A DNA stretch of 64,000 nucleotides. Origin: an uncultured Acidobacteriota bacterium (GTDB lineage Bacteria; Actinomycetota; Acidimicrobiia; Spongiisociales; ZC4RG35). The position numbers and the translations under genes are program-made. Below are positions 1,231 through 20,861 of this stretch, piece by piece. The stretch covers positions 19,463 to 83,462 of the forward strand of contig CAVZVJ010000002.1 of assembly GCA_963778755.1 (NCBI GenBank), in the 5' to 3' direction. The notes below the pieces were generated by a model, which had not been told where the DNA came from, ran no database searches, and saw nothing but the letters and a program-made list of their open reading frames with translations. Numbering within the stretch: the first letter of the stretch is position 1; every line of letters starts with the position of its first letter.

Positions 1231-2253
1231 TTAGCCGCGGCGGCCGGTCCGGGTGCGGGCGACCACATTCTCGTTCGGTATCGAAGCCTCGAGAAGATGC
1301 TGAATCTCTTCGATGTCCGGCCGATCGCCACCTTCGAATTGGTCGACCGCCTCACGGATCGCCGCGACGTGGTCCGCTGTCGAGCCACAACAGGCGCCGA
1401 TGATTCTCGCCCCGGAGCGCAAGGCTAGGTCCACATAGACCGACATCTCATCGGGCCCGATCGGGTAGGTGAGGCCCTCGGTCTGGTAAAGGGGAATACC
1501 GCAGTTGGCCTTCGTGATGGTCACCGTCTGCGGAGCGATGCCCCCGATCGCATGGGCCGCCGCAACCGCATCGCCCGGGCCAATCCCGCAATTGGCCCCG
1601 AGTGCTGCCACTCCCTGATTCTGGAGCCACCATTCGGCGAAAGCCCGGGGGTGAATCCCCATCATGGTGTGACCGGCAGTGTCAAAGCTCAGGGTGGCGG
1701 TGTAGGGCAGTCCCGTGGTCGCCGCGGCCTCGACCGCGGCATTTAATTCCTCATACGAGGAGATGGTCTCGATCCAGATGACGTCGGCTCCGGCCTCGGC
1801 GAGAGCTTCGCACTGCTCTGTGAACACCTCGACACCTCTCTGGTGGGAGAGAGTGCCCAGGGGTTCAAAAAGCTCACCGGTCGGCCCGACACTGCCGGCA
1901 ATAGCCACCTTCCGGTCGGCGAGGGCCACGGCCCTCTTCGCCACTTCGACCGCAGCTCGGTTCAACTCCGCAACGCGGTCACCCAGACGATGGAGATCGA
2001 GACGGAGGCGGTTTCCTCCGAAGGTGTTGGTGAGGATGATGTCCGAGCCGGCTTCGATGAAACTGCGATGCACCTTCTCGACGAGATCGGCCTGTTCGAC
2101 GTTGAGCAACTCAGGGCAGCCGCCGCCTTTCAGCCCCAGGGTGAAGAGCGTGGTGCCCATCGCCCCGTCTGCAACCAAATATGGGCGCGAGGCAAGCAAA
2201 TCAATGAATGTGTTCGAGGAGCCCTCGTTTGGTCCGGCCATCTTCATCTCCAT
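1231..2253 (-). CDS. Homocysteine S-methyltransferase family protein, likely betaine-homocysteine methyltransferase
   Basis: 340-aa ORF with LVADGAMGTTL, ILTNTFGGN and a C-terminal GACCGST zinc/homocysteine-binding motif. The glycine betaine context suggests BHMT. Confidence 0.75.
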   Translation of the reverse strand: MEMKMAGPNEGSSNTFIDLLASRPYLVADGAMGTTLFTLGLKGGGCPELLNVEQADLVEKVHRSFIEAGSDIILTNTFGGNRLRLDLHRLGDRVAELNRAAVEVAKRAVALADRKVAIAGSVGPTGELFEPLGTLSHQRGVEVFTEQCEALAEAGADVIWIETISSYEELNAAVEAAATTGLPYTATLSFDTAGHTMMGIHPRAFAEWWLQNQGVAALGANCGIGPGDAVAAAHAIGGIAPQTVTITKANCGIPLYQTEGLTYPIGPDEMSVYVDLALRSGARIIGACCGSTADHVAAIREAVDQFEGGDRPDIEEIQHLLEASIPNENVVARTRTGRRG

Positions 2254-2402
2254 TCTGAAGGCGGCCCTACAAAGAGAAACCGCCGCAGCGAGTGCCGGGC
2301 GGTTCTTCGTCCCGACGCTTTAGCCGCATTTCTTGAGCGCCCGCAAGCTGTGGATCAAATCGGCGCTGATAGAAAGGATACGCGGTTCCCGTTGCTGAGA
2401 CA

Positions 2403-2431
2403 AGAAAGGGCGGCCCAGGGCCGCCCTTTCT
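2403..2431 (-). terminator. Hairpin downstream of the substrate-binding protein gene (candidate intrinsic terminator)
   Basis: Perfect palindrome AGAAAGGGCGGCCC-A-GGGCCGCCCTTTCT lies 19 nt after the stop at 2450. On the minus strand it is followed by TGTCTC, so the U tract is weak. Confidence 0.45.
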
Positions 2432-2449
2432 AGCTATTGGTCGGTCAGG

Positions 2450-3424
2450 TCAGGAAAGCCAGGTGGACCAAACATCCTCGTGGTCGGCGATCCATTGGGC
2501 GGCGACGACTGAGGCGTCCTCACCATCGATTTCCACTGCCGGCAGCATCGAGAGCTGGTCCTCGTTGGTCAACGTGAACTTCTCCAAGAAGGCCAGAACC
2601 TCAGGGGCCTTGTCGGCAAGTTTCGCCGACGCCAACTTCTGAAGGACGTCCGGCGGGTAGGCACAGTCGACATCCGCAACGTCCCCGGCGTAGCACTCGT
2701 CGGTGTACTCGGGCAGCTCGACCTGGACCAGGTCGTACTTGGCCACCGCAGCAGTTGGTGTCCACCAGTACATCAGAATCGGCTCGTGGGCCGCAAACCT
2801 CGTGTCCAGCTCGGCAACCGTGGAGGCCTCAGAGCCGGAGAACACGACCTTGAAGGGCAACCCCAGGTTGGCGACGATCGGCTCGTCATACTGGGAGTAG
2901 GAGGGGTCGGTGGCCAGGAAGCGGCCCAGGTCTCCGGTTTCCGCCGTCGCGAACAATGCGGCGTTGGCCGGGTCCTTGTATCCCTCCCATGTAGCCAGGT
3001 CGGGGTGCTCTTCGACCACATAGCTGGGCACGAACCACCCAATCTGCCCGATCGCTCCTAGTTCGCCGATATTGACGACCGAGCCGTCGTCGAGGAACGC
3101 CTGCTCGGTGTCGTCGACGCCCGAGGGCCATAGTTCGAGCGCGGCATCGAGTGACCCGTCGGAGAGCCCGGTGAACATTGTGTTCTCGTCGATGGCGACG
3201 ATCTCTACCGGATTCCCGATTTCGGACTCGATCAACTGCTTGGCGATCTCGGCATTGATCGCCGATGCAGTCCAGGCGTTGGCCACCAGGTTGATTGTCT
3301 CGCCGTCTCCAGAGGCGGCGGTGCCCTCTGAGCCGGCAGTGGTGGTGCCCGACCCACCGCTATCGCCGCAGGACACAACAAGCATGGCTACGGCTACCAA
3401 TGAGATCCAGATTCGGTGTTTCAT
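2450..3424 (-). CDS. opuAC: Glycine betaine/proline betaine ABC transporter substrate-binding lipoprotein (OpuAC/ProX type)
   Basis: The ORF runs 2450..3625. The likely start is ATG 3424 (MKHRIWISLVAVAMLVVSCGDSGG, a lipobox). The remainder looks like an OpuAC-type binding protein. Confidence 0.85.
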   Translation of the reverse strand: MKHRIWISLVAVAMLVVSCGDSGGSGTTTAGSEGTAASGDGETINLVANAWTASAINAEIAKQLIESEIGNPVEIVAIDENTMFTGLSDGSLDAALELWPSGVDDTEQAFLDDGSVVNIGELGAIGQIGWFVPSYVVEEHPDLATWEGYKDPANAALFATAETGDLGRFLATDPSYSQYDEPIVANLGLPFKVVFSGSEASTVAELDTRFAAHEPILMYWWTPTAAVAKYDLVQVELPEYTDECYAGDVADVDCAYPPDVLQKLASAKLADKAPEVLAFLEKFTLTNEDQLSMLPAVEIDGEDASVVAAQWIADHEDVWSTWLS

Positions 3425-3507
3425 CGTTCTCCTAGGGCCCCTCAGCCGACAGTCGCGGCCAGAAAGGGCCTTTGTTACATTACCGACGTGGTTGGTTGGT
3501 ACGCGCC

Positions 3508-4531
3508 GTGACTGAAGATGTCTGCCTTTCAGTCGAGCAGGTGTGGAAGGTGTTCGGCGCTCATCCCGAAAAGGCGATCGATCTAGCCGAAAGCGGGGCG
3601 AGTCGGGCTGAAGTCGTGGACGCAACCGGTTGCACTCTCGGAGTTCGTGACGTCTCGTTCACGGTGGGCCGGGGGGAGACGTTTCGTCGTCATGGGGCTC
3701 TCCGGATCCGGTAAATCGACCTTGATCCGCTGCGTCGCCCGGCTCAACGATGTCACCCGAGGGCGAGTGTTGCTCGACGGCGAAGACCTCACGGCCATGG
3801 ACGCCGACCAGCTGCGCGAGGTCCGGCGACACAAGATGTCGATGGTCTTCCAACATTTCGGCCTGTTTCCCCACCGCCGGGTGATCGACAACGCCGCATA
3901 CGGGTTGGAAATTCAGGGCATCGACAAGGCGGAGCGTTACGAGCGCGCGATGCGGGTTCTCGAAGTCGTGGGACTCAAGGGATGGGAGCAGAGCTTCCCC
4001 CAACAGTTGTCGGGCGGGATGCAGCAACGGGTCGGGCTGGCCCGTGCCCTAGCGGTTGACCCAGAGATCATGTTCTTCGACGAGCCGTTCTCGGCATTGG
4101 ATCCCCTGATCAGACGAGAAATGCAAGACGAGCTGATCCGTCTCCAGGACACCTTGCAGCGGACCATCGTCTTCATCACCCATGACTTCGCAGAGGCGAT
4201 CAAGCTCGGTGACCGCATCGCCATCATGAAAGATGGCGCCTTCGACCAGGTGGGAACCGCGGTCGAGCTAATCACTAACCCGGCGACCGACTACGTGCGT
4301 GAGTTCACCAAAGAGATCCCCAAGGCCAAGGTTCTCACCGCCGCCGCCGTGCTCAGGGAGGGGAGCGGCGACGCGACCTCCCACACGGTGCATCTCGATG
4401 ACACCATCGAGACTGTTCTGCCTGCTTTGCTCGATGAGGAAGGTGAGATCTCGGTGGAGGACCCCGAGGGCCATCAGGTGGGAGTGATCGACCGGCACGC
4501 CGTTGCCCATGCCCTCGAGCCGGAGCAGTGA
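3508..4531 (+). CDS. proV: Glycine betaine ABC transporter ATP-binding protein ProV/OpuAA, interrupted by an apparent 1-nt insertion just before Walker A
   Basis: Frame 1 from GTG 3508 reads [53 protein letters not shown]. Frame 2 (ORF 3647..4531) continues [16 protein letters not shown]...[15 protein letters not shown]...[11 protein letters not shown]. The joined sequence is colinear with E. coli ProV. The shift lies within 3671-3684 (G6 run, then TTT). Confidence 0.85.
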
Positions 4532-6468
4532 CCGACGTCCTCCAGCCTCTGAAGTCCTCCGAGGCGATCGTTGCTGAGGACCGCCCAAGTCGGCTTCGTA
4601 CCCGCTATCTCTGGATCGCGGTTGTCGTGGCAGGGGTGGTGATTCTCCAGGTCCTGGCGCGGTCCAAGACATTTCCCCTGCCTTGGGACACAGTGTTCTC
4701 CGACCCGATCGACCAATTCACCAGGTGGGCGAGGGACAACCGTCACATCAACCCTGTGTTTACCGGGTTCTTCACCCCGATTTCGACCTCGATCGAGTGG
4801 GGCCTGACCACCGTCGAGTCCTTCCTGAAATGGCTTCCCTGGTACGTGCTTCCCATGGCCGTCTTCCTTGCGATCGCCCGAAGTGGGAATTGGAAGACCG
4901 CTTCGGTGGCCACCGTCGCCATGCTTTACCCGGGGCTGGTCGGGCTCTGGGACTCGACAATGGAAACGCTGTCCCTGATGACCATCGCGGTCATCATCAG
5001 TCTTGCCATCGGGATCCCACTCGGGGTCTGGGCCGCGGCCAACAAGAAGGTGGAGCGGTTCATCAGACCGTGGCTTGATGCCATGCAGACCATCCCGGCG
5101 CCGGTCTATTTCATCCCGATCGTCATCTTCTTTGGCATTCGCCGGGTGCCGGCGACCATCGCCACTGTCATCTACGCACTGCCTCCCGCAGTCAGGCTTA
5201 CCACCCTCGGCATCGTCGGTGTGCCCAAGCAGTCGGTGGAAGCCGCCGAGATGTTCGGCTCCACCAAGAGGCAGAGCCTGTTCAAGGTGCAACTGCCCAT
5301 GGCGATGCCCACGATCATGACCGGGATCAACCAAACGATCATGATGGCCTTGGGGATCGTCGTCTTGGCCACACTGCTCGGCGCCGGCGGTTTGGGTCAA
5401 GAAGTGATGGACGGTCTCAACAAGAGGCGGACCGGACGGGGTCTGGCGGCCGGGTTGGCGATCGTGGCGGTGGCCATGGTCCTCGATCGTGTCGGCCGGT
5501 CTTTTGCCTTTGCTGATAGGACCCGTCCCGCGTCTCGGCGCTATGTAGCCGCCGCATTCGGCGCGGTGGCGATCGGGATCGTCGTCGGGCGGATCATGGG
5601 CTGGATCGAGTTCCCCACGGTTTGGGAGGTGAAGGTATTCGACCCAATCGACAGTTTCGTGCTTTGGGGCAGGGACAACCTTTCCTTCATCACCCGCCCG
5701 GTCAACGACTTTGTTGTTGCCGGCCTCCTGATCCCGGTCCGTGACTTCCTCGTGGTGACCGTGGCTTGGCCGGTTCTCATATTCCTCACCGCGGTTCTGT
5801 GTTGGAGGATGAAGGGCTGGGGTTTGGCGATATTTGGAATCCTGTCGCTCCTCGCGGTCGGGTTCATCGGGATGTGGGAGCTGTCATTGGGAACCCTCAC
5901 CCAGGTGCTCGCCGGGGTGATCATCTCGATCGCCATCGCGATCCCGGTCGGGGTATGGGCGGGGCGAAATCCAAGAGTGGAAGCATTCCTGACGCCGATC
6001 CTCGATGCCCTGCAGACCATCCCCTCGTTCGTGTTCATCATCCCGGTGATCCTCTTCTTCACAGTGGGCCAGGTCCCCGGGATCATTGCGGCTGTGCTCT
6101 ACGCCATCGTCCCCGGGATCAGGATCACTGCGTTGGGGATCCGGCAGGTGCCTGAGGAGAGCATCGAGGCGTCGCAGACCTTCGGCGCCACTCCAAGGCA
6201 AACGATGTATGGGGTGAGGATCCCGCTCGCGGCACCGACGATCATGGCCGCGGTCAACCAGGTGATCATGATGGTGCTGGCAATGGTCATCATTGCCGGC
6301 CTGGTTGGGGGAGGAGCCCTCGGGTTTGAGACGGTGAGGGCAGTGACCAGAGGCCTGACCGGGCTCGGGTTCGAGGTCGGTTTCGCCATCGTGGTGATGG
6401 CAATAATCCTCGACAGGCTCACCCAGGCGTGGGCCGCCAAGCTGCAGCCTCCGACTCCGTCGAGCTGA
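4528..6468 (+). CDS. Glycine betaine ABC transporter permease with two tandem ProW/OpuAB-like transmembrane domains
   Basis: 646-aa ORF with an internal duplication. Compare [45 protein letters not shown] with [45 protein letters not shown]. Its start overlaps the proV stop. Confidence 0.85.
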
Positions 6469-6492
6469 TTGTCGTCTACTACCGTCCCGCCG

Positions 6493-7953
6493 ATGAGCCT
6501 CGACGTCCAACAGCTCTACATCGGCGGCTCCCGGGTGGACGCCACTTCGGGCGAGATGTTTCCCACCATCAACCCGGCTACCGGTCAGGAAATCTGCCAG
6601 GTCCAACACGCCGGGCCTGCTGATGTCGATCGGGCCGTCACTTCGGCCCGTGAAGGATTCCTGATCTGGCGCGAGATGAATGGTGCGGCTCGCGGAAGGA
6701 TCCTCAACAAGGCAGCCTGTCTGCTCCGGCAATACAACGAGGATCTGGCGCGTCTCGAGGTGTTGGACACCGGGAAACCGATCCAGGAGGCAATCGCGGT
6801 CGACGTGCTCTCTGGAGCCGACGCCGTCGAGTACTACGCCGGAATAGCCGCCAGCATTCATGGCGAGACCTATGACCTGGGGAGCGCTTGGGCCTACACC
6901 CGTCGCGAGCCGCTCGGGGTCTGTGCCGGGATCGGGGCCTGGAATTACCCGATCCAGATCGCCTGCTGGAAGTCGGCGCCCGCCTTGGCCTGCGGCAACT
7001 CGATGGTCTTCAAACCGGCCGAGTTGACGCCCCTCACCGCCCTTCGGCTCGCCGAGATCTTTACCGAAGCCGGGCTTCCCGATGGCGTGTTCAACGTGGT
7101 CCAGGGCGATCACCGGACCGGGGAGGCCCTGGTGGCTCATCCGGGCGTGGCCAAAGTCTCGCTGACGGGCGAGGTCGGGACCGGCAAGATTGTGATGGCC
7201 AATGCCGCCGCGACCCTCAAGCATGTGACCCTCGAGCTCGGGGGCAAGAGCCCTCTGATCATTTTCGACGACGCCGACCTGGACAACGCGGTGTCTGCGG
7301 CGCTGATGGCCAACTTCTACACCCAGGGGGAGATCTGCTCCAACGGCACCCGCGTCTACGTCCACGAGGAGATCCACGACGAGTTTCTCGACCGGCTGAT
7401 TACTCGCACCTCGAAGATGAAGATCGGCGATCCGATGGACCCCGACACCCACGTCGGGGCACTGATCTCCAAAGAGCACATGGCCAAAGTCCTCTTCTAT
7501 ATCGAGGCCGGAAAGTCGGCCGGTGCCCGGCTGGTGATTGGTGGCGGCCGCCCCACCGATCCATCGCTGGCAGATGGGTATTTCGTCGAGCCGACGGTGT
7601 TCGATGCTTGCACTGATGACATGTCGATCGTGCAGGATGAGATCTTCGGGCCGGTGATGGCGGTGCTCAGCTTCCGGGACGAGGACGACGTCATCGCGCG
7701 GGCCAACGACACGCCTTATGGATTGGCAGCTGGGGTCTTTACCAAAGACGTGCAGCGCGCTCACCGGGTGGTCGCCCGGCTCGAGGCGGGCACGACCTGG
7801 ATCAACAACTACAACATCACCCCGATCGAGATGCCCTTTGGCGGCTACAAGCAGTCAGGGATCGGGCGGGAGAACAGCCTCGTCACCATCAACCACTACA
7901 CCCAGGTGAAGAGCGTGTACGTGGAGATGGGCGATGTCGAGGCGCCTTACTGA
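6493..7953 (+). CDS. betB: Betaine aldehyde dehydrogenase
   Basis: The ORF runs 6469..7953, with a likely ATG at 6493 ([12 protein letters not shown]). It is colinear with E. coli BetB: [50 protein letters not shown]. Confidence 0.85.
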
Positions 7954-7978
7954 TCATTCCAAGCGAGAGGTGAAACAA

Positions 7979-8809
7979 ATGGCTGATGGCTTCCTGGCGG
8001 GCAAGACCGCCATGGTGACCGGCGGGGCATCCGGGATGGGGCTGGCAATGGCGCAGGCCTTCGCCTCCGAAGGCGCCAATGTCAGCATCGGCTCGCTGCT
8101 TGCGGGTGGATCCAAGGCGGAGGGGGAAGTGGTCCATATGCCAGGTCAGGAGCAGATGGACCACGCCATCTCGATCATCGAGGCGGAAGGGGTGGAGTCA
8201 CTGGGCGTGAACCTCGACGTGACCTCCGACGACTCGGTCGAGGCGTTCTATCAGGCGACCGTCGACCGCTTCGGCCAGGTGGACATACTGGCCAACGCCG
8301 CTGGCATCACTGCCGAGCAGACCATCGTCGGGCACTCCGACTCACTTTGGGCCAAGGTGATCGATGTCAATCTCACCGGCACCTACCGGGCCATCAAGCG
8401 AGCCCTGCCCGGGATGATCGAGCGCAAGTGGGGCCGGATCATCAACATCGCCTCGACTGCTGCCTCAGTGGGCGCAGTCACCTCAGGCGCCTATTGCGCC
8501 TCTAAGGCCGGAGTGGTCGGGCTCACCAGATGCGTGGCCTTGGAGGGGGCTCCCCACGGCGTCACCTGTAACGCGATCAGCCCGACCTGGGTGGACACCT
8601 CATTCGGACGGGAGTGGATGTCCGACATCGCCGAGAAGCAGGAGCACCGATCCGGCGCCGAGTACATCGCCGACGTAGAGAAGACCAACCCTCAGGGTCG
8701 TCTCATCTCACCCATCGAGATCGGGGCGTTGGCCCTGTTCCTGTGCAGTGCCGGGGCCAACGGGATCACCATGGAGGACCTGCGGGTCTCGGCCGGCTCG
8801 CTGTGGTGA
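7979..8809 (+). CDS. Short-chain dehydrogenase/reductase (SDR) family oxidoreductase
   Basis: ATG 7979 follows GAGAGG. Motifs are TAMVTGGASGMG (TGxxxGxG) and YCASKAG (YxxxK). Confidence 0.8.
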   Translation: MADGFLAGKTAMVTGGASGMGLAMAQAFASEGANVSIGSLLAGGSKAEGEVVHMPGQEQMDHAISIIEAEGVESLGVNLDVTSDDSVEAFYQATVDRFGQVDILANAAGITAEQTIVGHSDSLWAKVIDVNLTGTYRAIKRALPGMIERKWGRIINIASTAASVGAVTSGAYCASKAGVVGLTRCVALEGAPHGVTCNAISPTWVDTSFGREWMSDIAEKQEHRSGAEYIADVEKTNPQGRLISPIEIGALALFLCSAGANGITMEDLRVSAGSLW

Positions 8810-8821
8810 TACCCCCTCGCC

Positions 8822-8912: not shown

Positions 8913-9849
8913 CTACAACCCTTTGCGCCTCTTGACCTCGGCCACCACGGCCTCCAGCACCGGGTGGAGGTCGCCGATCACCGCGTAGTTGGCCTTGGTC
9001 ACCATCGGTGCCTCCGGGTCGTTGTTGATCGCCAAAACGTTCTTGGACGCCATCATTCCCACCCAGTGCTGGATCGCCCCCGAGATGCCGCAGGCCACGT
9101 AGAGGTTGGGGGCCACTCTGGTTCCGGTCTGGCCCACCTGATCCGAATGGGGACGCCAGCCATTGTTGGTGACTACCCGTGAACACCCAACGGCTCCCCC
9201 GAGAAGCCCGGCCAGTTCTTCGAGAACGGCGAACCCTTCGGGTGACCCCACTCCACGACCTCCACTGACCACTACCGGTGCGGTGGTGAGGGTGATCCCC
9301 GCGGCGACCGTGACCCGCTCCACCACGCGGGTCCGCGCCAGGTGCTCGGAGAGTTGTGGTGTAAATGTCTCCGGTTCGACGGGGTCTCCCGCTGGGGCGG
9401 CGGTTATCACGTGTAGCGCCACAGTTGCCAGCTTGATCGACCCGGATAGCTCGGCTTCCTCGAGAAGGCTTCCTCCCCAACGGGTGCGGGTCAGCTCCCA
9501 GCTCTTCTCAGTTGCATGTACTTCGGTGACATTGGTGGCCAGGGGGAGGTCCGAGAGCGCGGCCACGTGGGCCAAGACTTCGTTGCCACGTTCGGTCCCT
9601 GCGGCAACAAGCGCATCCGGCGACTCCGCTCGGAGCAGTTGGGCCAGGGCCTCTCCGATTGCCTCCGGGGCATAGTCGGAGAGGATGGGGTGATCGACCT
9701 TTAGATGACGGGCCACCCCCCCGATCTCGCAGGGGCCAACACTCACCGAGCTGACCTCACCCAGCGAGCGCGGCCAGGGCCAATGCTTGCAGTGAGGTCT
9801 CGAGTGGCACGCCCGCTTCGTGCTCCACAAAGACGAAGACCCGGCTCAC
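8913..9849 (-). CDS. etfA: Electron transfer flavoprotein subunit alpha, apparent frameshift near the N-terminus
   Basis: GTG 9849 overlaps the etfB stop (ATGTGA) and reads VSRVFVFVEHEAGVPLETSLQALALAA, then hits a stop. ORF 8913..9830 continues RSLGEVSSVSVGPCEIGG...ACGISGAIQHWVGMMASKNVLAINNDPEAP. The shift lies within 9761-9774. Confidence 0.85.
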
Positions 9850-10610
9850 ATCAGCCCCAGGCTCTCGAAGAGGTCGACAACGGCCGGCGCCGCTTCCGGC
9901 CCCTGGCCGAGGATGTTGGTTGCGCTGGCGACTTCGGTAGGCGTGACCAACCGCAACATCTTCAAACCGCCTGGCGCCATGTCAGCCTCGCTGACCGCGA
10001 CCTCGGCCTTCTTGGCCTGGAGTCGGCCGGGAAGGGTCGGGTAACGAGGCAGGTTGATCCCTTCCTTGACGGCGACCACCGCCGGAAGTGACAGCCGGTA
10101 GACCTCGGAGCCTGCATCGGTCTCTCGTCTGGCGACCAAAGTGTCGCCCTCGACGTCGATCTCCTTGATCCCGCTGACCACCGGCCGCTCCAGGGCGTGG
10201 GCCACCCGGATCCCGACCTGATATCCAGCGGAGTCGGCCGACTCGTTGCCAAAGAGGACGAGGTCGAAACGGCCGCCGGTTTCTTCAAGCTCCGCCGTGC
10301 GCTTGGCCAACATGTGTGCCGTTGCCTGAGGGTCCCAATCGGATCCGTCGGTTGCCACGAGAGCCGCCTCATCGGCTCCGACGGAGATGGCGTATCGCAA
10401 CTGCTCTTCGGCTTCGACCGGGCCCATGGTCATCACAGTGACACTGCCCCCGTGCTGTTCCTTGATCCGGATCGCTTCTTCCACGGCGCATTCCTCATGC
10501 GGGCTCACCGTGAATGGCAGATGACGGGCATCAACGGCTTGCTGGTCATCGGTGAGGACGATGCGGGCGCCGGGGGCCGGCACCCGCTTCACACAGACGA
10601 GGACTCTCAA
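9846..10610 (-). CDS. etfB: Electron transfer flavoprotein subunit beta
   Basis: Intact 254-aa ORF reading (M)RVLVCVKRVPAPGARIV... The TTG start forms a TTGA overlap with the upstream dehydrogenase stop. Confidence 0.9.
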   Translation of the reverse strand: MRVLVCVKRVPAPGARIVLTDDQQAVDARHLPFTVSPHEECAVEEAIRIKEQHGGSVTVMTMGPVEAEEQLRYAISVGADEAALVATDGSDWDPQATAHMLAKRTAELEETGGRFDLVLFGNESADSAGYQVGIRVAHALERPVVSGIKEIDVEGDTLVARRETDAGSEVYRLSLPAVVAVKEGINLPRYPTLPGRLQAKKAEVAVSEADMAPGGLKMLRLVTPTEVASATNILGQGPEAAPAVVDLFESLGLM

Positions 10611-13235: not shown

Positions 13236-13937
13236 ATGGCCGACGATGAGCTAGATCTGAATTCACTTTCTGACGCCGATCTGGTGACTCAGATGCATGA
13301 CGATCTCTACGACGGCATGGCAGATGAGATCGTCGAAGGCACGCGGATACTCCTCGGTCGCAACTGGGGCCCGCAAGAAGTTCTCAACGAGGCCCTCGTC
13401 GAGGGGATGCGCATCGTCGGGATCGATTTCCGAGACGGGATCCTCTTCGTGCCCGAAGTCCTGCTGGCGGCCAACGCCATGAAAGCCGGCATGGAGGTGC
13501 TCCGACCCCTGCTCGTCGAAACCGGGGCCCGCACCATCGGCAAGGTGGTGATCGGCACGGTCAAGGGGGACATTCACGACATCGGCAAGAACCTGGTGGC
13601 GATGATGCTCGAGGGTGCTGGCTTCGAGGTGATCAACCTGGGCATCAACACCGACGCCGAGGAATTCATCGCCGCCCTCGAGGAGCACAAGCCCGACATC
13701 CTGGGTATGTCGGCGCTGCTGACCACGACCATGCCCTACATGAAGGTTGTTATCGACACCTTGAAGGAGCGGAACATCCGGGACGACTACATCGTGATGG
13801 TCGGTGGGGCCCCGCTCAATGAGGAATTCGGCATGGCCATCGGCGCCGACGCCTATTGCCGCGATGCTGCGGTTGCCACCGAGACTGCCGAGGCTTTGGT
13901 GCTTGCTCGCCGTCTGACCTCAGGAGAGGACGCATGA
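13236..13937 (+). CDS. Cobalamin-binding corrinoid protein of a methyltransferase system (MtgC/MttC-like)
   Basis: ATG 13236 follows GGGAGAGG. It carries the B12-binding signature GTVKGDIHDIGKN (DxHxxG), plus GMSALLTTT and MVGGAPL. Confidence 0.85.
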   Translation: MADDELDLNSLSDADLVTQMHDDLYDGMADEIVEGTRILLGRNWGPQEVLNEALVEGMRIVGIDFRDGILFVPEVLLAANAMKAGMEVLRPLLVETGARTIGKVVIGTVKGDIHDIGKNLVAMMLEGAGFEVINLGINTDAEEFIAALEEHKPDILGMSALLTTTMPYMKVVIDTLKERNIRDDYIVMVGGAPLNEEFGMAIGADAYCRDAAVATETAEALVLARRLTSGEDA

Positions 13938-14545
13938 GCGAACCGCGGGACGGTGTGTTGGTGATTGCCTGTGGGGCGCTGGCCAAGGAGATCCTGGAAG
14001 TGGTCCGGGTCAACTCGTTGGACTGGGTGGACGTCGAGTGCCTTCCCTCCCGGCTCCACAACACACCCGACCGCATACCTGCGGCCATTGCCGAAAAAGT
14101 CGACTCCGGTCTCGAGCGCTACCGCGAAGTGTTTGTCGGCTACGCCGATTGCGGGACGGGCGGGGCTCTCGATGCGGTGCTCGAGGAGCGCGGCGTCGAA
14201 CGTCTTCCCGGCGCCCACTGCTACGAGTTCTTTGCGACCAGTGACGTCTTCGAATCCCTCTCCGAGCAGGAGCCGGGCACCTTCTACCTGACCGACTTCC
14301 TGGTGCGCCATTTCGATCGCCTCGTCTGGCGAGGGCTGGGTCTCGATCGTTGGCCCCACCTGCGAGACGATTACTTCGGCAACTACAAGCGTCTCGTCTA
14401 TCTCTCCCAGGTCGAAACGCCTGATCTGATCGCTAGGGCGGAGCTCGCCGCCTCTCGTCTCAGCCTCGCCTTCGAGCATCGGCCCGTCGGATACGGCGAT
14501 CTGGCCACCAGCCTGGTCGAGGTGTCGCGTCGGGTCCCCGCATGA
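13934..14545 (+). CDS. DUF1638 domain protein
   Basis: ATG 13934 overlaps the upstream stop (ATGA). It reads VLVIACGALAKEILEVV...VFVGYADCGTGGALD...PGAHCYEFF. This matches my recollection of DUF1638, a family that accompanies corrinoid methyltransferase genes. Confidence 0.6.
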   Translation: MSEPRDGVLVIACGALAKEILEVVRVNSLDWVDVECLPSRLHNTPDRIPAAIAEKVDSGLERYREVFVGYADCGTGGALDAVLEERGVERLPGAHCYEFFATSDVFESLSEQEPGTFYLTDFLVRHFDRLVWRGLGLDRWPHLRDDYFGNYKRLVYLSQVETPDLIARAELAASRLSLAFEHRPVGYGDLATSLVEVSRRVPA

Positions 14546-14853
14546 GCCCGCGTGAGGCTGGGCCCGAGTTGACCGTCATCCGCTGGCGCGAGATCCCTGC
14601 CCAGGTCGTGGCCCGGAAGGGGAGGGAGACGGTCAAGCGTGAGCTTTCCCCGAGATTTCAGGTCGCTATCGACCGCGCCGCTATGTACGCCGGATTGTTC
14701 GGCACCGATGACTACCTCTCAGAATGGGCCCGGGACACCCGCCCTTGCAGCGACGACTTGGAAAGCGAAGTGGCGGCCGAAACCACCCGCATCGAGACAG
14801 AGTTCGACCCGGAGACCCTCAATGACCTGGCCGGCAATGGAGGCGTGAGATGA
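14542..14853 (+). CDS. Small conserved protein of unknown function (about 100 aa; resembles the family Pfam names 'virulence factor')
   Basis: 103-aa ORF with 4-nt overlaps on both sides. It reads LTVIRWREIPAQVVARKGRETVKRELSPRFQVAIDRAAM. The family call is from recall only. Confidence 0.5.
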   Translation: MSPREAGPELTVIRWREIPAQVVARKGRETVKRELSPRFQVAIDRAAMYAGLFGTDDYLSEWARDTRPCSDDLESEVAAETTRIETEFDPETLNDLAGNGGVR

Positions 14854-15746
14854 CCGACACCGTGGTTTCATCACCAACCCGGGAGGTCGTGATCGGGTTC
14901 GACCGACCCTTCGTCTTGATCGGCGAGAGGATCAATCCCACCGGGCGCAAGCTCCTGGCCGAGGAGATGAAGAACGGCGACTTCAGCCGGGTCGAGACCG
15001 ATGCGCTGAGCCAGGTTCAGGCCGGCGCGCAAATGCTGGACGTCAACGCCGGGATCCCGCTCGCCGACGAGCCGGCACTCCTTGCCCGAGCCGTGGAGCT
15101 GGTTCAGTCTCTGACCGACGTGCCGTTGTCGATCGACTCATCGATCGTGGAGGCACTGGAGTCCGGGCTGGCTGCCTACAAGGGCAAGGCCCTGGTCAAC
15201 TCGGTGACCGGGGAAGAGGAGCGTTTGGAACGGGTCCTGCCCCTGGTCGCCAAACACGGGGCAGCGGTGGTGGCCATCTCCAATGATGAGACGGGGATCT
15301 CAGAGGATCCCGATGTCCGTTTCGAGGTGGCAAAGAAGATCGTGAACCGAGCCGCCGACTACGGGATTCCCACCGCGGACGTGGTGGTCGACCCGTTGGT
15401 GATGCCAATTGGTGCCATCGCCACGGCCGGGAGACAGGTCTTCCATCTAGTGCGCAGGCTGCGTGACGAGCTCGGGGTCAACACCACATGCGGCGCCTCC
15501 AACATCAGTTTCGGCCTCCCCAACCGTGCCGGCATCAACGCCGCCTACCTGGCGATGGTGATGGGGGCGGGGATGACCTGCGCCATCACCAATCCGCTGG
15601 AGGCCGAGATCCGACAGGCGATCCTGGCGGCAGACGTCCTCAACGGCCACGACCCCAACTGCGCAACCTGGATTCGGACCTATCGAGAGCCTCCGGCAGC
15701 CGGCGAGAGGGGCCGCGCCCGTGAGAACCGGCGCCGAACCGGCTAA
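14850..15746 (+). CDS. Pterin-binding methyltransferase (methyl-corrinoid:tetrahydrofolate methyltransferase, MtgA/AcsE/MetH-domain type)
   Basis: 298-aa ORF reading FVLIGERINPTGRKLLAEEMKNGDF...MLDVNAG...LSIDSS...LVNSV...TTCGASNISFGLPNR. Confidence 0.8.
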   Translation: MTDTVVSSPTREVVIGFDRPFVLIGERINPTGRKLLAEEMKNGDFSRVETDALSQVQAGAQMLDVNAGIPLADEPALLARAVELVQSLTDVPLSIDSSIVEALESGLAAYKGKALVNSVTGEEERLERVLPLVAKHGAAVVAISNDETGISEDPDVRFEVAKKIVNRAADYGIPTADVVVDPLVMPIGAIATAGRQVFHLVRRLRDELGVNTTCGASNISFGLPNRAGINAAYLAMVMGAGMTCAITNPLEAEIRQAILAADVLNGHDPNCATWIRTYREPPAAGERGRARENRRRTG

Positions 15747-15752
15747 ATCGCC

Positions 15753-17708
15753 ATGACGAGCCAGGTGATCTTCACGCCTTCGGGGCGGAGAGGATCGTTT
15801 CCCGAGGGCACCACCGTTCTCGACGCCGCCCGAGCGCTTGGCGTCGACCTCGACTCCGTGTGCGGCGGCCGAGGTTTGTGCGGGCGCTGTCAGGTGGTGA
15901 TCGGGAGCAGGCCAGGGGTGGAAGCTCGGCCCGAACGGCTCTCCCAGCCGGGTCCGACCGAGCTGGACTATCAGGGAAAGCGACCCCTCGTCGACGGCCA
16001 CCGGCTGGGATGCGCCGCTCACATCCAGGAAAACGTCGTGATCGATGTGCCTGCGGAGAGCCAGGTCCACAGACAGGTTGTTCGCAAGCGTGCAGGAGTG
16101 TCAGCCCTCCCGGTCGATCCGGTCGTCCGTCTCCACTACGTCGAGGTGGCCGAGCCCGACCTGGCCAGCCCTACCGGTGATCTGGAACGACTCATCGCCG
16201 CCCTCGGCGAGCAGTGGGAGCTGACCGGTCTTGAGATCGACCATCGCCTCCTGGCCCAGATCCAGACCGTATTGCGGCAAGGGAAATGGGCGGTGACCGT
16301 GGCGGTCCGCGAGGGAAGGGACCTGATCGCAATCTGGCCCGGTTTCCGGGACCTGGCGGTCGGGATCGCCTTCGACGTCGGCTCCACCACCATCGCCGGG
16401 CATCTTTGCGACCTGACTACAGGCGCGGTCCTCGCCTCTGCGGGCCGGATGAATCCCCAGATTGGCTTTGGCGAGGACCTGATGAGCCGGGTCTCCTACG
16501 TGATGATGAATGAGGACGGTGCCTCGCGTCTCACCATGGTCGTGCGCCAGGCACTCGACGAGTTGGTTGGGGAATTGGTGGGCGAAGGTGGCGTGGAGCG
16601 CACCGATGTCCTGGAGTTGACCCTCGTGGGCAACCCGATCATGCACCACCTCGCCCTGGGCTTCGACCCCAGGGAGTTGGGCACCGCTCCCTTCGCCTTG
16701 GTCACGACCTCCGCCCTCAGTACCCCGGCCGCCGAGCTCGGCCTCGGGGTGCATCCCGGCGCCCGGGTTTACACCCTTCCCTGTATTGCTGGCCACGTCG
16801 GGGCGGACGCCGCTGGGGCCGTCCTCTCCGAGGGCCCGCATCGGGGCGACAGCCTGCAACTGCTGGTCGATGTCGGCACCAACGCCGAGTTGGTCCTCGG
16901 CAACAAGCACCGGCTCCTGGCGGCATCGAGCCCAACCGGCCCCGCCTTCGAGGGAGCCCAGATCTCTTCGGGCCAGAGAGCAGCCCCCGGTGCCATCGAG
17001 CGGGTTCGCATCGACAAGACATCGTTGGAGCCCCGATTCTCCGTGATCGGCCAGGAGGCGTGGTCGGACGAGTCTGGTTTTGATTTCGAGGGAGTCACCG
17101 GGATCTGCGGATCGGGGATCATCGAGGCGATCGCTGGACTGTTCCTGGCCGGCGTCATCGACACCGATGGGGTGATCCGAGATCCGGCCAACCCATCGCC
17201 TCGAATCATGCCCTCCGAGCGGACCTTCTCCTACGTGTTGTGCTTCGAGCCCCGGATCGAGGTCACCCAGGCCGACGTCCGGGCGGTGCAACTGGCCAAG
17301 GCCGCGCTCTACGCAGGCGCCCGGCTCCTGATGGATCACTACGGGGTCGACCGGGTCGACGAGATCAGGTTGGCCGGGGCCTTCGGCAGCCACATCGACC
17401 CCATCTACGCCATGGTCCTGGGGATGATCCCAGACTGCGATCTCGACCGGGTGTCCGCCGCCGGGAACGCAGCCGGTGTGGGGGCGATGATGGCCTTGCT
17501 CTCAGGTGTTGCCCGGGTGGAGATCGAGACCACAGCTGCTTCGATCGAGAAAGTCGAGACCGCGGTGGAGCCCCGATTCCAAGAGCACTTCGTGGCCGCG
17601 TTGGCGATCCCGCACAAGACCGATCCCTTCCCGATGCTCTCCAAGGCGATCGACCTGCCGTCTCCAACTGAGACCAGGGGACGCCGCGGACGACGTTCCG
17701 GGCAGTAG
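15753..17708 (+). CDS. Reductive activator of corrinoid proteins (RACo-type: 2Fe-2S ferredoxin domain plus ASKHA ATPase domain)
   Basis: 651-aa ORF. The N-terminus has VCGGRGLCGRCQV. ASKHA motifs are IAFDVGSTTIAGHL, LLVDVGTNAELVLG and ICGSGIIEAIAGL. Confidence 0.8.
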   Translation: MTSQVIFTPSGRRGSFPEGTTVLDAARALGVDLDSVCGGRGLCGRCQVVIGSRPGVEARPERLSQPGPTELDYQGKRPLVDGHRLGCAAHIQENVVIDVPAESQVHRQVVRKRAGVSALPVDPVVRLHYVEVAEPDLASPTGDLERLIAALGEQWELTGLEIDHRLLAQIQTVLRQGKWAVTVAVREGRDLIAIWPGFRDLAVGIAFDVGSTTIAGHLCDLTTGAVLASAGRMNPQIGFGEDLMSRVSYVMMNEDGASRLTMVVRQALDELVGELVGEGGVERTDVLELTLVGNPIMHHLALGFDPRELGTAPFALVTTSALSTPAAELGLGVHPGARVYTLPCIAGHVGADAAGAVLSEGPHRGDSLQLLVDVGTNAELVLGNKHRLLAASSPTGPAFEGAQISSGQRAAPGAIERVRIDKTSLEPRFSVIGQEAWSDESGFDFEGVTGICGSGIIEAIAGLFLAGVIDTDGVIRDPANPSPRIMPSERTFSYVLCFEPRIEVTQADVRAVQLAKAALYAGARLLMDHYGVDRVDEIRLAGAFGSHIDPIYAMVLGMIPDCDLDRVSAAGNAAGVGAMMALLSGVARVEIETTAASIEKVETAVEPRFQEHFVAALAIPHKTDPFPMLSKAIDLPSPTETRGRRGRRSGQ

Positions 17709-17725
17709 CGGCTCTCCACGTTCGC

Positions 17726-17760
17726 GTTCCATGATGTAGTCTGGTACCACATCATGGAAC
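17726..17760. promoter_or_regulatory. 12-bp perfect inverted repeat spanning the MttB-family start codon
   Basis: GTTCCATGATGT (17726-17737), an 11-nt spacer, then ACATCATGGAAC (17749-17760). The ATG at 17754 lies in the right arm. The 14-mer CCACATCATGGAAC recurs as CCACATCGTGGAAC at 13206-13219, upstream of the corrinoid protein gene. Confidence 0.4.
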
Positions 17761-19291
17761 AGCCCACTGGACGTCGAAGTGGTGGCCGAGCAGCCCGACA
17801 GGCGGCGCGCACCGCCCGTGCCATCGACTCGGTGCCCTTCCTCACCAGGAGCGCTGGCCCCGGTCGAGGTGATGGGCGAAGAAGGGCTCTCTCTGATCGA
17901 GTCCAACGCCGAGGTGCTCCTCGAACGGGTCGGGATCGAAGTCCTCAACTATCCCGAGGCCCTGGACATCTTCCGCGGTGCAGGGTGTGAGGTCACCGAG
18001 ACCCGGGTTCGCTTCCCGGCCGGGCTCGCACGGAGCCTTCTCGCCACTGCCCCGTCCCAATTCACCCAGCACGCTCGCAATCCGGAACACGACGTGATTA
18101 TCGGCGACCCCCATCTGGTGTTCGCCCCGGCCTACGGGTCCCCCTTCGTGCGCGACCTCGAGGGAGGGCGTCGCTACGCCACCATCGCAGACTTCGAGAA
18201 CTTCGCCCGGCTCACTCACATGACGCCGTCGTTGCATCACGGCGGGGGAACGTTGTGCGAACCGGTCGACCTTGCCGGTGAACAAGCGGCATTACGACAT
18301 GGTCTTCGCCCACATCAAGAACCACGACAAGGCGTTCATGGGCTCGGTCACCGCTCCCCAGCGGGCCCAGGACACGGTCGATATGGCCGACATCGCATTC
18401 GGGGGAGAGGTGAAAGCGGGAAAGACGGTGCTGCTCTCGTTGTGCAATGCCAACAGCCCGATGAGCTGGGACTACAACATGCTCGGCTCGGCGAAGATCT
18501 ACGCAGAGAACAATCAGGCTTGTCTGATGACGCCGTTCATCCTTGCCGGGGCGATGGCACCGGTGACCGTCGCCGGGACCGCGACCCAAACCCTGGCCGA
18601 GGCAATGGCCGGGATGGCCTTCTGTCAGATGGTGCGACCGGGCGCACCGGTGGTCTTCGGATCGTTCGCTTCTTCGATCTCGATGCAATCTGGGGCGCCG
18701 ACCTTCGGTACGCCCGAGCCGGCCCTGGTCCTGTTCGTGATGGCGGCCTTGGCCCGGCGCCTGGGCATCCCTTTCCGCAGCGGCGGGAACCTCACGGCGG
18801 CCAAGACCCCTGACTACCAGGCTGCCTACGAGTCGGCGGCGACGTTCCTTCCGACGATTCTGGCCGGGGTCAACTTCGTGCTTCACACCGCGGGATGGCT
18901 CGAAGGTGGTCTGGCCATGGGCTACGAGAAGTTCATCCTCGACGCCGATCAGGCCGGCATGGCCGAGGCGATCCTCGGCGGCATCGATCTCTCCGAGAAC
19001 GGCCAGGCTCTAGAAGCCCTACTCGACAACCCACCGGGGCAGCATTTTCTGGGCAATGCCCACACTCTGGCCAATTTCGAAAGCGCCTTTTGGCGGAGTG
19101 GGACCGCCGACAACAACAGCTTCGAGCAATGGCAGGAGGCCGGTTCTCAGGAGGCCGCGACCCGGGCGAGCGGGATCTGGCGCCGAATGCTCAACGAGTA
19201 CGAGCCGCCAGCTCTCGACGAGGCGATCGAGGGGGAGCTGGTCGACTGGATTGGGCAGCGCAAGGCTTCCTTCCCGGACTCCGACGTCTGA
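17754..19291 (+). CDS. MttB-superfamily (non-pyrrolysine) quaternary-amine:corrinoid methyltransferase, two apparent 1-nt insertions
   Basis: Three frames join into one protein. ATG 17754 gives MEQPTGRRSGGRAARQAARTARAIDSVPFLTRS. ORF 17779 gives LAPVEVMGEEGLSLIESNAEVLLERVGIEVLNYPEALDIFRGAGCEV...GGGTLCEPVDL. ORF 18272 gives PVNKRHYDMVFAHIKNHDKAFMGSV... and runs to the stop at 19291. The shifts lie near 17851-17854 and near 18270. There is no in-frame TAG at either join. Confidence 0.85.
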
Positions 19292-19293
19292 CC

Positions 19294-20115
19294 ATGAGCG
19301 ACAGTCTGGTCAAGGCTCTTCTGAATGGAGCCGACTTTGAGGTGGTCCCTCTGAAGTCCGTCATGGACCAGGTGTCAGCCATTCCACCTGGCTACACGGT
19401 CTCGGTCACGGCTTCGCCGGCGAAGGGGATGAAGACCACGGTCGATCTGGCGATCGAGCTGCAGAAGCAGGGTTATCGGGCGGTGCCCCACCTCTCGGCT
19501 CGGATGATCGAAGGCCGCCGCGACCTGAGTTCGATCATCAAGCGCCTCGATGACGGTGGCGTATCCCGGGCCTTCATCACCGGTGGTGACGCCGAGCAGC
19601 GTGGGATCTACTTCGACGCCATGTCCCTGCTACTCGACCTCGCCGAGCTCGGACATCCCTTTTTCGAGGTGGGCATCACCGGTTATCCGGAGGGACATCC
19701 GGCGATTCCCGCCGATCGGCTGCGCAAGGCCCTGGTGGAGAAGCAGGCCCACGCCACCTACATCGTGACCCAAATGTGCTTCAACGCTAAGACGATCGCC
19801 GATTGGGTCACCTCGATCCGGGCCGATGGAGTCGCGCTCCCGATCAAGGTGGGGGTGCCGGGGGCGGTTGAACCAGCCAGGTTGTTGAGCATCGGAGCAC
19901 GAATCGGGGTTGGGGACTCGCTCAGGTTCGTGGCGAAGAATCGTCGAGCTCTGTTCCGGATCCTACGTCCTGGGAGATACCGGCCAGACCGGCTCGTCGA
20001 GCCTCTCGGGCGTCTGGGCGAAGGGCTCGGGTTGACCGGCCTGCACATCTTCACCTTCAACCAGGTCGCCCCGACGGTCGCCTGGCACAACAAGGCATTG
20101 GCAAGGATCGGCTGA
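19294..20115 (+). CDS. metF: Methylenetetrahydrofolate reductase family protein
   Basis: ATG 19294 lies 2 nt after the MttB stop. It reads FEVVPLKS...VSVTASPAKG...AVPHLSAR...FITGGD...ITGYPEGHP...IVTQMCF. Confidence 0.8.
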   Translation: MSDSLVKALLNGADFEVVPLKSVMDQVSAIPPGYTVSVTASPAKGMKTTVDLAIELQKQGYRAVPHLSARMIEGRRDLSSIIKRLDDGGVSRAFITGGDAEQRGIYFDAMSLLLDLAELGHPFFEVGITGYPEGHPAIPADRLRKALVEKQAHATYIVTQMCFNAKTIADWVTSIRADGVALPIKVGVPGAVEPARLLSIGARIGVGDSLRFVAKNRRALFRILRPGRYRPDRLVEPLGRLGEGLGLTGLHIFTFNQVAPTVAWHNKALARIG

Positions 20116-20861
20116 TGGCGGTCCAGTCGATCGATCGGGCGTTCGAGGTATTGAAGGCTCTCGCCATCGAGCCTTCCGGAGTCACCGACCTCGCACAGAG
20201 GGTTGGTCTGCCCAAGTCGACCGTGGCCCGGATCTTGTCGAGTCTGGAGGACCAGGGAGCGGTGACCAAAGGCACCGACGGCAACCTCTACTCGATCGGC
20301 ATGGGCCTGGTCGAGCTGGCGGGAGCCATCGACGCCACGGCCGCACTGGCAACTGCGGTTCGCCCCCACCTGCGAGGCCTATCAGATGTTCTCGGCGAGG
20401 CATCCGGGTTCAGCGTCCCCACCGGGTACACCATCCAGTACATGGTCCAAGTGGAGAGCCCCAATCCTGTGCAGGTCCGCGACTACACGGGTTTGGCGGT
20501 CCCCATGCACATCGGGCCCTCAGGCTTGTGTGTCATGGCCCAGTGGCCGCGCGAGGAAGTCGACCGATATCTCAAGCGCCCCCTGGAGCGCTACACACCG
20601 AGGACGGTTCTCGATCCCCCACAGATTCTCGAGCGGCTCGAGGAGATCCGTCGGGTGGGCCACTACTGGATCTACGAGGAGTTCGCAGAGGGGATCAACT
20701 CGGTGGCGGCGCCGGTCCTTGTGGAGGGGAGCCTGGCCATGGGCGCCATCCACGTCCATGGGCCTGCCTACCGATTTCCGGCCGAGGGGAAGGCCGATTC
20801 GATCGCTGAGCTGGTCATGGATGCGGCGGCCCGGTTCTCGGATCGGCCCGAAGTCATCTGA
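20115..20861 (+). CDS. IclR family transcriptional regulator
   Basis: 248-aa ORF reading MAVQSIDRAFEVLKALAIEPSGVTDLAQRVGLPKSTVARILSSLEDQGAV. The ATG overlaps the metF stop (TGATG). Confidence 0.85.
   Translation: MAVQSIDRAFEVLKALAIEPSGVTDLAQRVGLPKSTVARILSSLEDQGAVTKGTDGNLYSIGMGLVELAGAIDATAALATAVRPHLRGLSDVLGEASGFSVPTGYTIQYMVQVESPNPVQVRDYTGLAVPMHIGPSGLCVMAQWPREEVDRYLKRPLERYTPRTVLDPPQILERLEEIRRVGHYWIYEEFAEGINSVAAPVLVEGSLAMGAIHVHGPAYRFPAEGKADSIAELVMDAAARFSDRPEVI

Follow-up and report, generated by a model that had tools for sequence, protein, structure and literature searches.

A 64,000-nucleotide stretch of DNA, here called the window, was analysed from the genome of an uncultured soil member of the Acidimicrobiia, whose assembly of 1.8 Mb in 11 contigs is 58% complete. 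Positions 1231-20861 of the window hold an island of genes predicted to serve the uptake and demethylation of glycine betaine. An earlier note on this DNA had read the island as two parallel routes for the first demethylation step, one through an enzyme resembling betaine-homocysteine methyltransferase (BHMT) and one through a corrinoid-dependent methyltransferase of the MttB family. Open reading frame listing together with Pfam and NCBIfam profile searches recovered every gene that the note had named, each where the note had placed it. The order given there needs one correction, as the gene after BetB (7934-8809) is a short-chain dehydrogenase/reductase (SDR) and not the BHMT-like gene. Four genes were missing from the earlier list, namely those for the SDR, a DUF1638 protein, a small PF13769 protein and an IclR-family regulator. 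The features of the island are as follows.

1231-2253, minus strand: S-methyl_trans protein of 340 residues, read here as a probable MtgE (PF02574, E 5e-62)
2262-2310, minus strand: GC-rich hairpin (AACCGCC...GGCGGUU) with a U-rich tract (minimum free energy fold)
2300-2376, minus strand: SAM-II-like (SAM_alpha) aptamer, putative leader of the MtgE-like gene (RF00521, 32.2 bits, E 7e-4)
2403-2435, no strand assigned: perfect palindrome AGAAAGGGCGGCCC-A-GGGCCGCCCTTTCT with a 14-bp stem (palindrome search of intergenic sequence)
2450-3424, minus strand: OpuAC-type substrate-binding lipoprotein (PF04069, E 1e-44; signal peptide, lipobox VVSCG)
~3496-4531, plus strand: OpuAA/ProV-type ABC ATPase with one frame break (ABC_tran; 48% identity to Sinorhizobium meliloti ProV)
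4528-6468, plus strand: fused double OpuAB-type permease (two BPD_transp_1 stretches)
6469-7953, plus strand: BetB, betaine-aldehyde dehydrogenase (NF009725, 808 against a cut-off of 593; TIGR01804, 699 against 669)
7934-8809, plus strand: SDR (adh_short)
8913-9849, minus strand: EtfA with one frame break (ETF_alpha, ETF)
9846-10610, minus strand: EtfB (ETF)
10607-13114, minus strand: dimethylglycine/sarcosine dehydrogenase-type enzyme (DAO, FAO_M, GCV_T and GCV_T_C)
13236-13937, plus strand: MtgC-type corrinoid protein (PF02607, B12 cap; PF02310, B12-binding)
13934-14545, plus strand: DUF1638 protein (PF07796)
14542-14853, plus strand: small PF13769 ('Virulence_fact') protein (PF13769)
14850-15746, plus strand: MtgD-type pterin-binding methyltransferase (PF00809; NF005719, 365 bits against 259)
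15753-17708, plus strand: RACo/RamA-like ATP-dependent reductive activase with an N-terminal 2Fe-2S domain (Fer2, RACo_linker, Raco_middle, RACo_C_ter)
17754-19291, plus strand: MttB-superfamily methyltransferase with two frame breaks (PF06253)
19294-20115, plus strand: MetF-like methylenetetrahydrofolate reductase (PF02219, 38.9 bits against a cut-off of 24)
20115-20861, plus strand: IclR-family regulator, last gene of its operon (HTH_IclR, IclR_C)

These genes form four transcription units. The first lies on the minus strand and begins with the OpuAC-type lipoprotein, which would bind glycine betaine or a related compound, followed by the palindrome and then by the separately led S-methyl_trans gene. 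On the plus strand, the second unit runs from the OpuAA ATPase through the fused permease and BetB to the SDR, with junctions of -4, 0 and -20 nt. The third (minus strand) couples the dimethylglycine dehydrogenase (DMGDH)-type enzyme translationally to EtfB and EtfA through -4 and overlapping-stop junctions; a tblastn search of the genome, at its 58% completeness, showed this DMGDH-type enzyme to be the only member of its family in the assembly. The fourth unit (plus strand) carries, in order, the corrinoid protein, the DUF1638 and PF13769 proteins, the pterin-binding methyltransferase, RACo, the MttB homologue, the MetF-like protein and IclR, and its genes are joined by four overlaps of 1-4 nt, with remaining gaps of 2, 6 and 48 nt.

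The host encodes aerobic respiration, with a haem-copper oxidase found in the genome (COX1 match of 518 bits), in agreement with the otherwise aerobic organism described in the earlier note. The juxtaposition that had drawn attention there, a non-pyrrolysine MttB homologue beside the oxidative FAD/ETF branch and a Bmt-family gene, is likewise real. Species-representative genomes contain more than 590 related stretches, the nearest being metagenome-assembled genomes (MAGs) of Acidimicrobiia, followed by Chloroflexota (Limnocylindria) and others. Three loci of the same genus show the entire island in synteny, with nucleotide identities of 77-88%. Gene neighbourhoods were counted in 80 related loci, where the core operon members are kept in 47 to 66 cases (MtgC 51, DUF1638 49, PF13769 47, MtgD 54, RACo 60, the MetF-like gene 66 and IclR 49) and DMGDH-EtfBA adjoins in about 20. 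Because of this synteny and the retention of the core operon, the island is not a chance juxtaposition.

A closely comparable set of genes has been characterized in Proteobacteria. In the aerobic Ruegeria pomeroyi, Mausz et al. showed that glycine betaine is demethylated by the MttB-family protein MtgB, the corrinoid protein MtgC and the pterin-binding protein MtgD, and that MtgC and MtgD together with MtgE (PF02574) also constitute a split methionine synthase (Mausz et al., 2025, PNAS, PMC12478193). Growth on glycine betaine requires MtgC and MtgD, as does methionine synthesis, RamA and DUF1638 serve in reactivation, and MetF2 oxidises methyl-tetrahydrofolate (PMC12478193). Earlier genetic work in Phaeobacter inhibens had established a split methionine synthase that depends on a RamA-like protein and DUF1638 (Price et al., 2018, PLoS Genet, PMC5764234). 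The annotated record of the S. meliloti cluster lists an ASKHA/RACo protein, a methyl-tetrahydrofolate:cobalamin methyltransferase, a methylenetetrahydrofolate reductase (MTHFR), PF13769, DUF1638, a cobalamin-binding protein and an MttB-family protein; bmt lies 6 kb from this cluster and proV is also present. Identities of the window proteins to their S. meliloti counterparts are 77% for MtgC, 66% for MtgD, 60.5% for MttB, 57% for RACo, 49% for DUF1638 and for PF13769, and 48% for Bmt and for ProV. Since the parts list is the same and the identities range from 48 to 77%, the island is read as a member of the known MtgBCDE system. The combination that appears surprising in an aerobe is therefore already published, in 2025, for Proteobacteria; what is new in this locus is an unusually compact actinobacterial member whose mtgE-like gene is led by a putative riboswitch.

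The MttB homologue was examined for the residues of a glycine betaine-binding site. It matches PF06253 in two reading frames (profile positions 11-168 and 166-500), and among solved structures it comes nearest to PDB 4YYC, the S. meliloti protein to which the 60.5% identity given above refers. Its similarity to MtgB of Desulfitobacterium hafniense is about 42-45%, with 267 bits, over the C-terminal 330 residues only. The glycine betaine site of D. hafniense MtgB consists of Y97, F356, R312 and H348, with an aromatic pair that MtcB, MtpB, MthB and MtyB do not conserve (Picking et al., 2026, PMC13080624). After correction of a two-residue numbering offset, the alignment showed that three of the four contacts are kept in the window protein, Y97 in AYGSPF, R312 in PFRSGG and H348 in LHTAGW. 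The carboxylate contacts R312 and H348 are thus conserved; the aromatic pair is incomplete, with Y97 kept, F356 replaced by glycine and a tryptophan standing four residues earlier. The S. meliloti 4YYC protein has the same pattern at all these positions. Given the binding-site residues and the neighbouring genes (the OpuAC transporter, BetB, which would make betaine, and the DMGDH-type enzyme, which would use the product), glycine betaine is the most likely substrate, an assignment that we make with good confidence.

The same protein was examined for pyrrolysine, as the earlier note had proposed a search for in-frame TAG codons and pyl genes. The MttB gene contains no in-frame TAG, and leucine occupies the position of pyrrolysine in Methanosarcina barkeri MttB, as it does in D. 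hafniense MtgB. The pyrrolysine-type MttB model TIGR02369 gave 193 bits against a cut-off of 525, and no PylS was found above the cut-off in the genome or in 14 relatives. The missing TAG, the leucine and the lack of PylS rule out a pyrrolysine reading of this MttB. Weak matches to PYLIS_3 (25 and 30 bits, gathering score 38) were obtained at 18794-18890 of the window (plus strand) and in the S. meliloti locus (L107:14515-14606). Both fall within the MttB coding sequence near the former pyrrolysine position, and they were rejected as an insertion RNA element, most likely reflecting coding-sequence homology.

The S-methyl_trans protein decides whether the island holds one first-step enzyme or two. 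It scores 97 bits against a cut-off of 215 for the MmuM/YagD-type model and is not a plain member of that type, which would have counted against the reading of the earlier note. Among solved structures, its best match is the homocysteine domain of Thermotoga maritima MetH with 173 bits, while rat and human BHMT reach 60-63 bits. It was aligned by MAFFT with human BHMT, whose sequence was confirmed to be identical to that of PDB 8D45, and with two MetH homocysteine domains, using the BHMT pocket residue list of PMC9713302, which cites Evans 2002. The alignment showed that the zinc site (C217/C299/C300) and the equivalents of the homocysteine-side residues D26 and E159 are kept. At W44, Y77 and Y160 of BHMT the window protein has C46, G79 and T163, residues of the same types as in the two MetH domains, and the BHMT-specific loop bearing F261/F267 is absent. 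W44, Y77 and Y160 are presumably the betaine-side residues of BHMT. This presumed role agrees with a remark of Mausz et al. (2025, PMC12478193) by which the betaine-binding residues are retained in SAR11-type Bhmt alone. The same authors argue that the S. meliloti 'Bhmt' or Bmt (SMc04325) is MtgE, taking its methyl group from the shared corrinoid protein, and report that a S. meliloti bmt mutant given methionine still degrades betaine (PMC12478193).

The distribution of the gene was followed in 41 relatives. A gene for the S-methyl_trans protein (at least 45% identity) is present in 17 of the 18 genomes with this MttB clade and was seen in 0 of the 23 genomes without the clade; it often lies on the MttB contig and adjoins MttB in three genera. 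The earlier reading of two parallel, independent first-step routes is not borne out by the MetH-type residues, the 173 against about 60 bits, the 48% identity to Bmt/MtgE and a SAM-riboswitch-like leader of its own. Judged from its sequence, the BHMT-like protein is unlikely to demethylate betaine independently and is probably MtgE, the zinc-dependent homocysteine-binding module of a split methionine synthase. The note had called the two routes redundant or condition-specific, of which the latter is right in spirit and a redundant first step is probably not present.

The leader of the mtgE-like gene resembles a riboswitch for S-adenosylmethionine (SAM). Of 13 relatives, 10 belonging to several genera carry the same element ahead of the orthologue, on the correct strand and at the same position, with an eleventh weak match, and the best of these (in the relative G033) reaches 44.8 bits, which is above the gathering score. 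Across 11 aligned sequences the core motifs GAUUUGA, CAGCUUGC and GCUAAAGCG do not vary, in contrast to the diverging flanks, and an outer pair of P1 covaries as A-U, C-G and U-A. The GC-rich hairpin with its U-rich tail overlaps the 3' end of the aptamer in the minimum free energy fold and may be a terminator-like expression platform. The palindrome follows directly after the stop codon of the binding-protein gene and is a probable terminator separating the transcripts of the binding protein and MtgE. Neither hairpin near mtgE was picked up by a simple scan for promoters and terminators, and no SAM-II-like leader was found upstream of S. meliloti bmt.

A second SAM riboswitch lies outside the window. 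The genome contains a classical metH with an open frame of 1160 residues, and upstream of it is a SAM-I riboswitch (RF00162, 68.7 bits, above the gathering score) on the plus strand of contig C2 of G000 at 183692-183778 (locus L122:693-779), about 100 kb downstream of the window. A SAM-I element together with a SAM-II-like one in a single genome was found in no species of a 2007 survey (PMC2258182). Because of these two leaders, both homocysteine methylases appear to be SAM-repressed methionine genes. With a SAM-riboswitch-like leader of its own, the MtgE-like gene looks like an anabolic methionine gene and does not look like a bulk catabolic first step. Under a more specific proposal, the SAM level in these Acidimicrobiia would gate mtgE through a switch of the SAM-II class equipped with a terminator-like platform, with metH controlled by SAM-I, such that betaine methyl groups on the shared corrinoid protein would pass either to homocysteine or to tetrahydrofolate; we consider this proposal as credible as its opposite.

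Three genes of the island are interrupted by frame breaks. The true start of MttB is the ATG at 17754 (MEQPTGRR...), and two extra bases, one near 17851 and one at 18272-18274, spread the gene over three frames. At the second site eight orthologues read GAC-YTN-CCN (Asp-Leu-Pro) and only the window has the extra base. Orthologues with 88-97% identity are intact and 516-531 residues long, and upon removal of the extra bases the window protein is 96-97% identical to intact orthologues, with no stop codons. OpuAA has one extra base at about 3681 relative to two relatives, its N-terminal part continuing in another frame, and EtfA has one at about 9767 relative to relatives, which places its N-terminus in another frame. 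Such differences were polarised in the 27.2 kb for which two or more relatives gave coverage, and a difference was assigned to the window only where two or more of the three relative loci agreed on the other state. Thirteen uncompensated frame-changing differences were found, comprising 11 insertions in the window (+1 or +4) and two deletions at gene junctions, with an insertion rate of about one per 2.5 kb across unrelated genes. One relative MAG of the same genus has +1 insertions of its own at different sites. The uniform insertion bias across unrelated genes, the near-identical proteins without stops and the intact orthologues make it very probable that MttB, OpuAA and EtfA are broken by errors in the consensus of a long-read metagenome assembly. 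A programmed +1 frameshift in MttB was also considered and rejected, as eight orthologues read through 18272, the extra base is confined to the window and the window has many such insertions.

Taken as a whole, the island is, in our judgement, more probably than otherwise a compact actinobacterial version of MtgBCDE, with one first-step demethylase, one corrinoid protein and two acceptor branches, and with breaks that are assembly errors. Several observations weigh against parts of this account and bear on its rivals. The S-methyl_trans protein might instead be a genuine cobalamin-independent BHMT, giving the organism two first-step demethylases, BHMT and MttB, for different conditions. Its score of 381 bits exceeds the cut-off (338) of the NCBIfam equivalog model NF005718, under which NCBI curation still names the family betaine--homocysteine S-methyltransferase, and its gene adjoins the betaine transporter. 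The MtgE reading rests on genetics and argument in Proteobacteria, and no MtgE homologue from any source has a biochemically measured activity (PMC12478193). Since the genome has MetH, MtgE is not required as the sole methionine synthase, and co-occurrence with MttB may be explained in part by physical linkage. The leader matches RF00521 at a score below the gathering score of 36, and SAM control would suit a true BHMT equally well, so the riboswitch alone does not tell MtgE from BHMT. Other evidence speaks against a true BHMT: MetH-type residues stand at W44, Y77 and Y160 and the F261/F267 loop is absent, the MetH homocysteine domain gives three times the bit score of BHMT, betaine-binding residues are a SAR11-type property and the methionine-fed S. 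meliloti bmt mutant still degrades betaine, and in the 41 relatives the gene never occurs without the MttB/corrinoid system. A true BHMT is on this evidence unlikely. In the distribution of methionine synthases, the same-genus G010 (89% complete) has the island with no match to the MetH activation domain and none to MetE, and G006 resembles it in a fragmented assembly; in such strains the MtgCDE modules may be the sole methionine synthase, for which the evidence is weak and clear in G010 only.

The two remaining rivals concern MttB. It might act on another quaternary amine (proline betaine, carnitine, gamma-butyrobetaine, choline or trimethylamine), with the betaine genes being only neighbours. 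Family membership does not predict substrate in the MttB superfamily, the protein reaches only about 42-45% similarity (267 bits) to the characterised MtgB, and F356 of that enzyme is not kept, so betaine binding cannot be identical to that of D. hafniense MtgB. Against these points stand the kept equivalents of Y97, R312 and H348, set beside an aromatic pair that is unconserved in MtcB, MtpB, MthB and MtyB, and the leucine at the pyrrolysine position with no PylS. The operon is moreover flanked by the OpuAC transporter, BetB and the DMGDH-type enzyme, the DMGDH-EtfBA genes recurring in about a quarter of the 80 loci, and the orthologous S. meliloti cluster is the one that Mausz et al. assign to betaine, leaving another substrate rather improbable. 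The alternative that MttB, OpuAA and EtfA are truly inactivated in this strain, so that the corrinoid route is decaying and the Bmt-type enzyme and MetH remain, would account for MttB carrying two independent breaks, neither in a long homopolymer run. It is met by the 11 window-specific insertions in 27 kb of unrelated genes, nearly all of +1, by the same bias at other sites in a second MAG of the genus, by an MttB that is otherwise 96-97% identical to intact orthologues with no stops, and by the low completeness (58%) of an assembly of so few contigs (11). True inactivation is consequently the least probable of the three rivals, and the assembly-error account of the breaks is retained.

Compared with MtgBCDE of R. 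pomeroyi and S. meliloti, the island shares the MtgB, MtgC, MtgD and MtgE modules, RamA/RACo, DUF1638 and a MetF paralogue, and in both cases the host is an aerobe with downstream dimethylglycine genes. It differs in its host, a soil member of the Acidimicrobiia (Actinomycetota) instead of a proteobacterium, and in having all modules together with mtgE, OpuA, BetB and DMGDH-EtfBA within 20 kb. Its mtgE has a SAM-II-like leader of which none was found upstream of S. meliloti bmt, its MetF-like protein bears no similarity to the MTHFR plus MTHFR_C pair of S. meliloti, and its genome also contains a classical MetH. With the P. inhibens synthase (PMC5764234) it shares the PF02574, PF00809 and cap/B12-binding proteins and reactivation by a RamA-like protein and DUF1638; that synthase is the sole methionine synthase of its host and no betaine link was proposed for it, whereas here MetH coexists and the modules lie in a betaine island. 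D. hafniense MtgABC (Ticak 2014; PMC13080624; PDB 2QNE/9YCE) is alike in its non-pyrrolysine TIM barrel of the MttB superfamily with leucine and Y97/R312/H348, and in having a corrinoid protein and a methyl-corrinoid:tetrahydrofolate methyltransferase. The window differs from it in the glycine at F356 with tryptophan four residues upstream, in its aerobic host and in a pterin-binding partner of the MetH/MeTr-like NF005719 type. Animal and SAR11-type BHMT (human, PDB 1LT8/8D45) has the same PF02574 barrel, three zinc cysteines, D26 and E159; the window protein differs in the C, G and T at W44, Y77 and Y160, the missing F261/F267 loop and a score of about 60 bits. The high identities of MtgC (77%) and MtgD (66%) between an actinobacterium and the alphaproteobacterium S. 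meliloti, along with a leader class typical of Proteobacteria, point to horizontal transfer of the cassette between phyla.

From the observed gene content, orthology, residue patterns, synteny and RNA element, we infer the following activities, substrates and direction of methyl flow. OpuA would import glycine betaine, and BetB, possibly with the coupled SDR, would produce it from choline-derived betaine aldehyde. The MttB homologue, as MtgB, would take one methyl group off glycine betaine, which becomes dimethylglycine, and load this group onto the corrinoid of MtgC in its Co(I) state. From methyl-MtgC, MtgD would pass the methyl group to tetrahydrofolate, and the MetF-like enzyme would then oxidise methyl-tetrahydrofolate for one-carbon (C1) metabolism, a role assigned by analogy with MetF2 (PMC12478193). 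When SAM is low, MtgE would move the methyl group from methyl-MtgC, and not from betaine directly, to homocysteine to form methionine, its gene being transcribed apart from the others under a presumed riboswitch of the SAM-II type. There would be one first-step demethylase and not two, because MtgE would take its methyl group from methyl-MtgC. The DMGDH-type enzyme and EtfBA would remove the remaining N-methyl groups oxidatively and deliver the electrons to the respiratory chain. Inactivated Co(II) would be re-reduced by RACo with DUF1638 and perhaps the PF13769 protein.

If this scheme is correct, MtgBCDE, so far a system of marine and rhizobial Proteobacteria, would be a standard operon-encoded betaine route in abundant uncultured soil Acidimicrobiia and Chloroflexota, and the known demand for vitamin B12 in soil would be wider. 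A true SAM-II element would place this riboswitch in Actinomycetota and would be the first reported riboswitch control of a split-methionine-synthase module, no earlier report having been found in a non-exhaustive literature search. The riboswitch offers a testable handle on the split of methyl groups between catabolism and methionine synthesis, and the compact 20-kb island is a convenient template for reconstitution of the whole system in vitro. For annotation, a 'betaine--homocysteine S-methyltransferase' in such islands is probably a corrinoid-dependent MtgE module.

Further details were obtained for the accessory proteins. The corrinoid protein carries the motif GDIHDIG, of the DxHxxG form, and its best NCBIfam models are MtgC models, with scores under their strict cut-offs. 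The invariant residues C13, H42, C73, H95 and C96 in the DUF1638 alignment suggest a metal or iron-sulfur site. Structure models were obtained for DUF1638 and for the PF13769 protein, with predicted local distance difference test (pLDDT) values of 90 and 93, and neither has a PDB neighbour better than E 0.01. In the window as in S. meliloti, the operon consistently includes the PF13769 'virulence factor' protein. The MetF-like gene follows MttB in the 66 of 80 loci in which it was counted. No GMC-type choline dehydrogenase was found in the island. The SDR, whose gene has a 20-nt overlap with the end of betB and keeps that place in relatives at 87-93% identity, could be a choline- or alcohol-oxidising partner, perhaps the missing step; no NCBIfam model scored above its cut-off for it. 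A search for an operator motif shared between the divergent promoter regions gave only 8-9-mers of doubtful meaning.

Other genes of the window are interrupted as well. A P-type cation ATPase gene (21628-24700, plus strand) lies in two frames with one extra base near 23533. A stand-alone GCV_T gene (37413-38516, plus strand), aminomethyltransferase-like, carries window-specific single-base insertions at 37482 and 38498 and could belong to C1 or methylamine metabolism. A giant gene with SARP/BTAD, Ser/Thr kinase, nSTAND and WD40 domains (44367-50774, minus strand) is cut into many open reading frames, its kinase domain being split between 49488-50774 and 48449-49591, and this fragmentation is a further sign of assembly indel errors.

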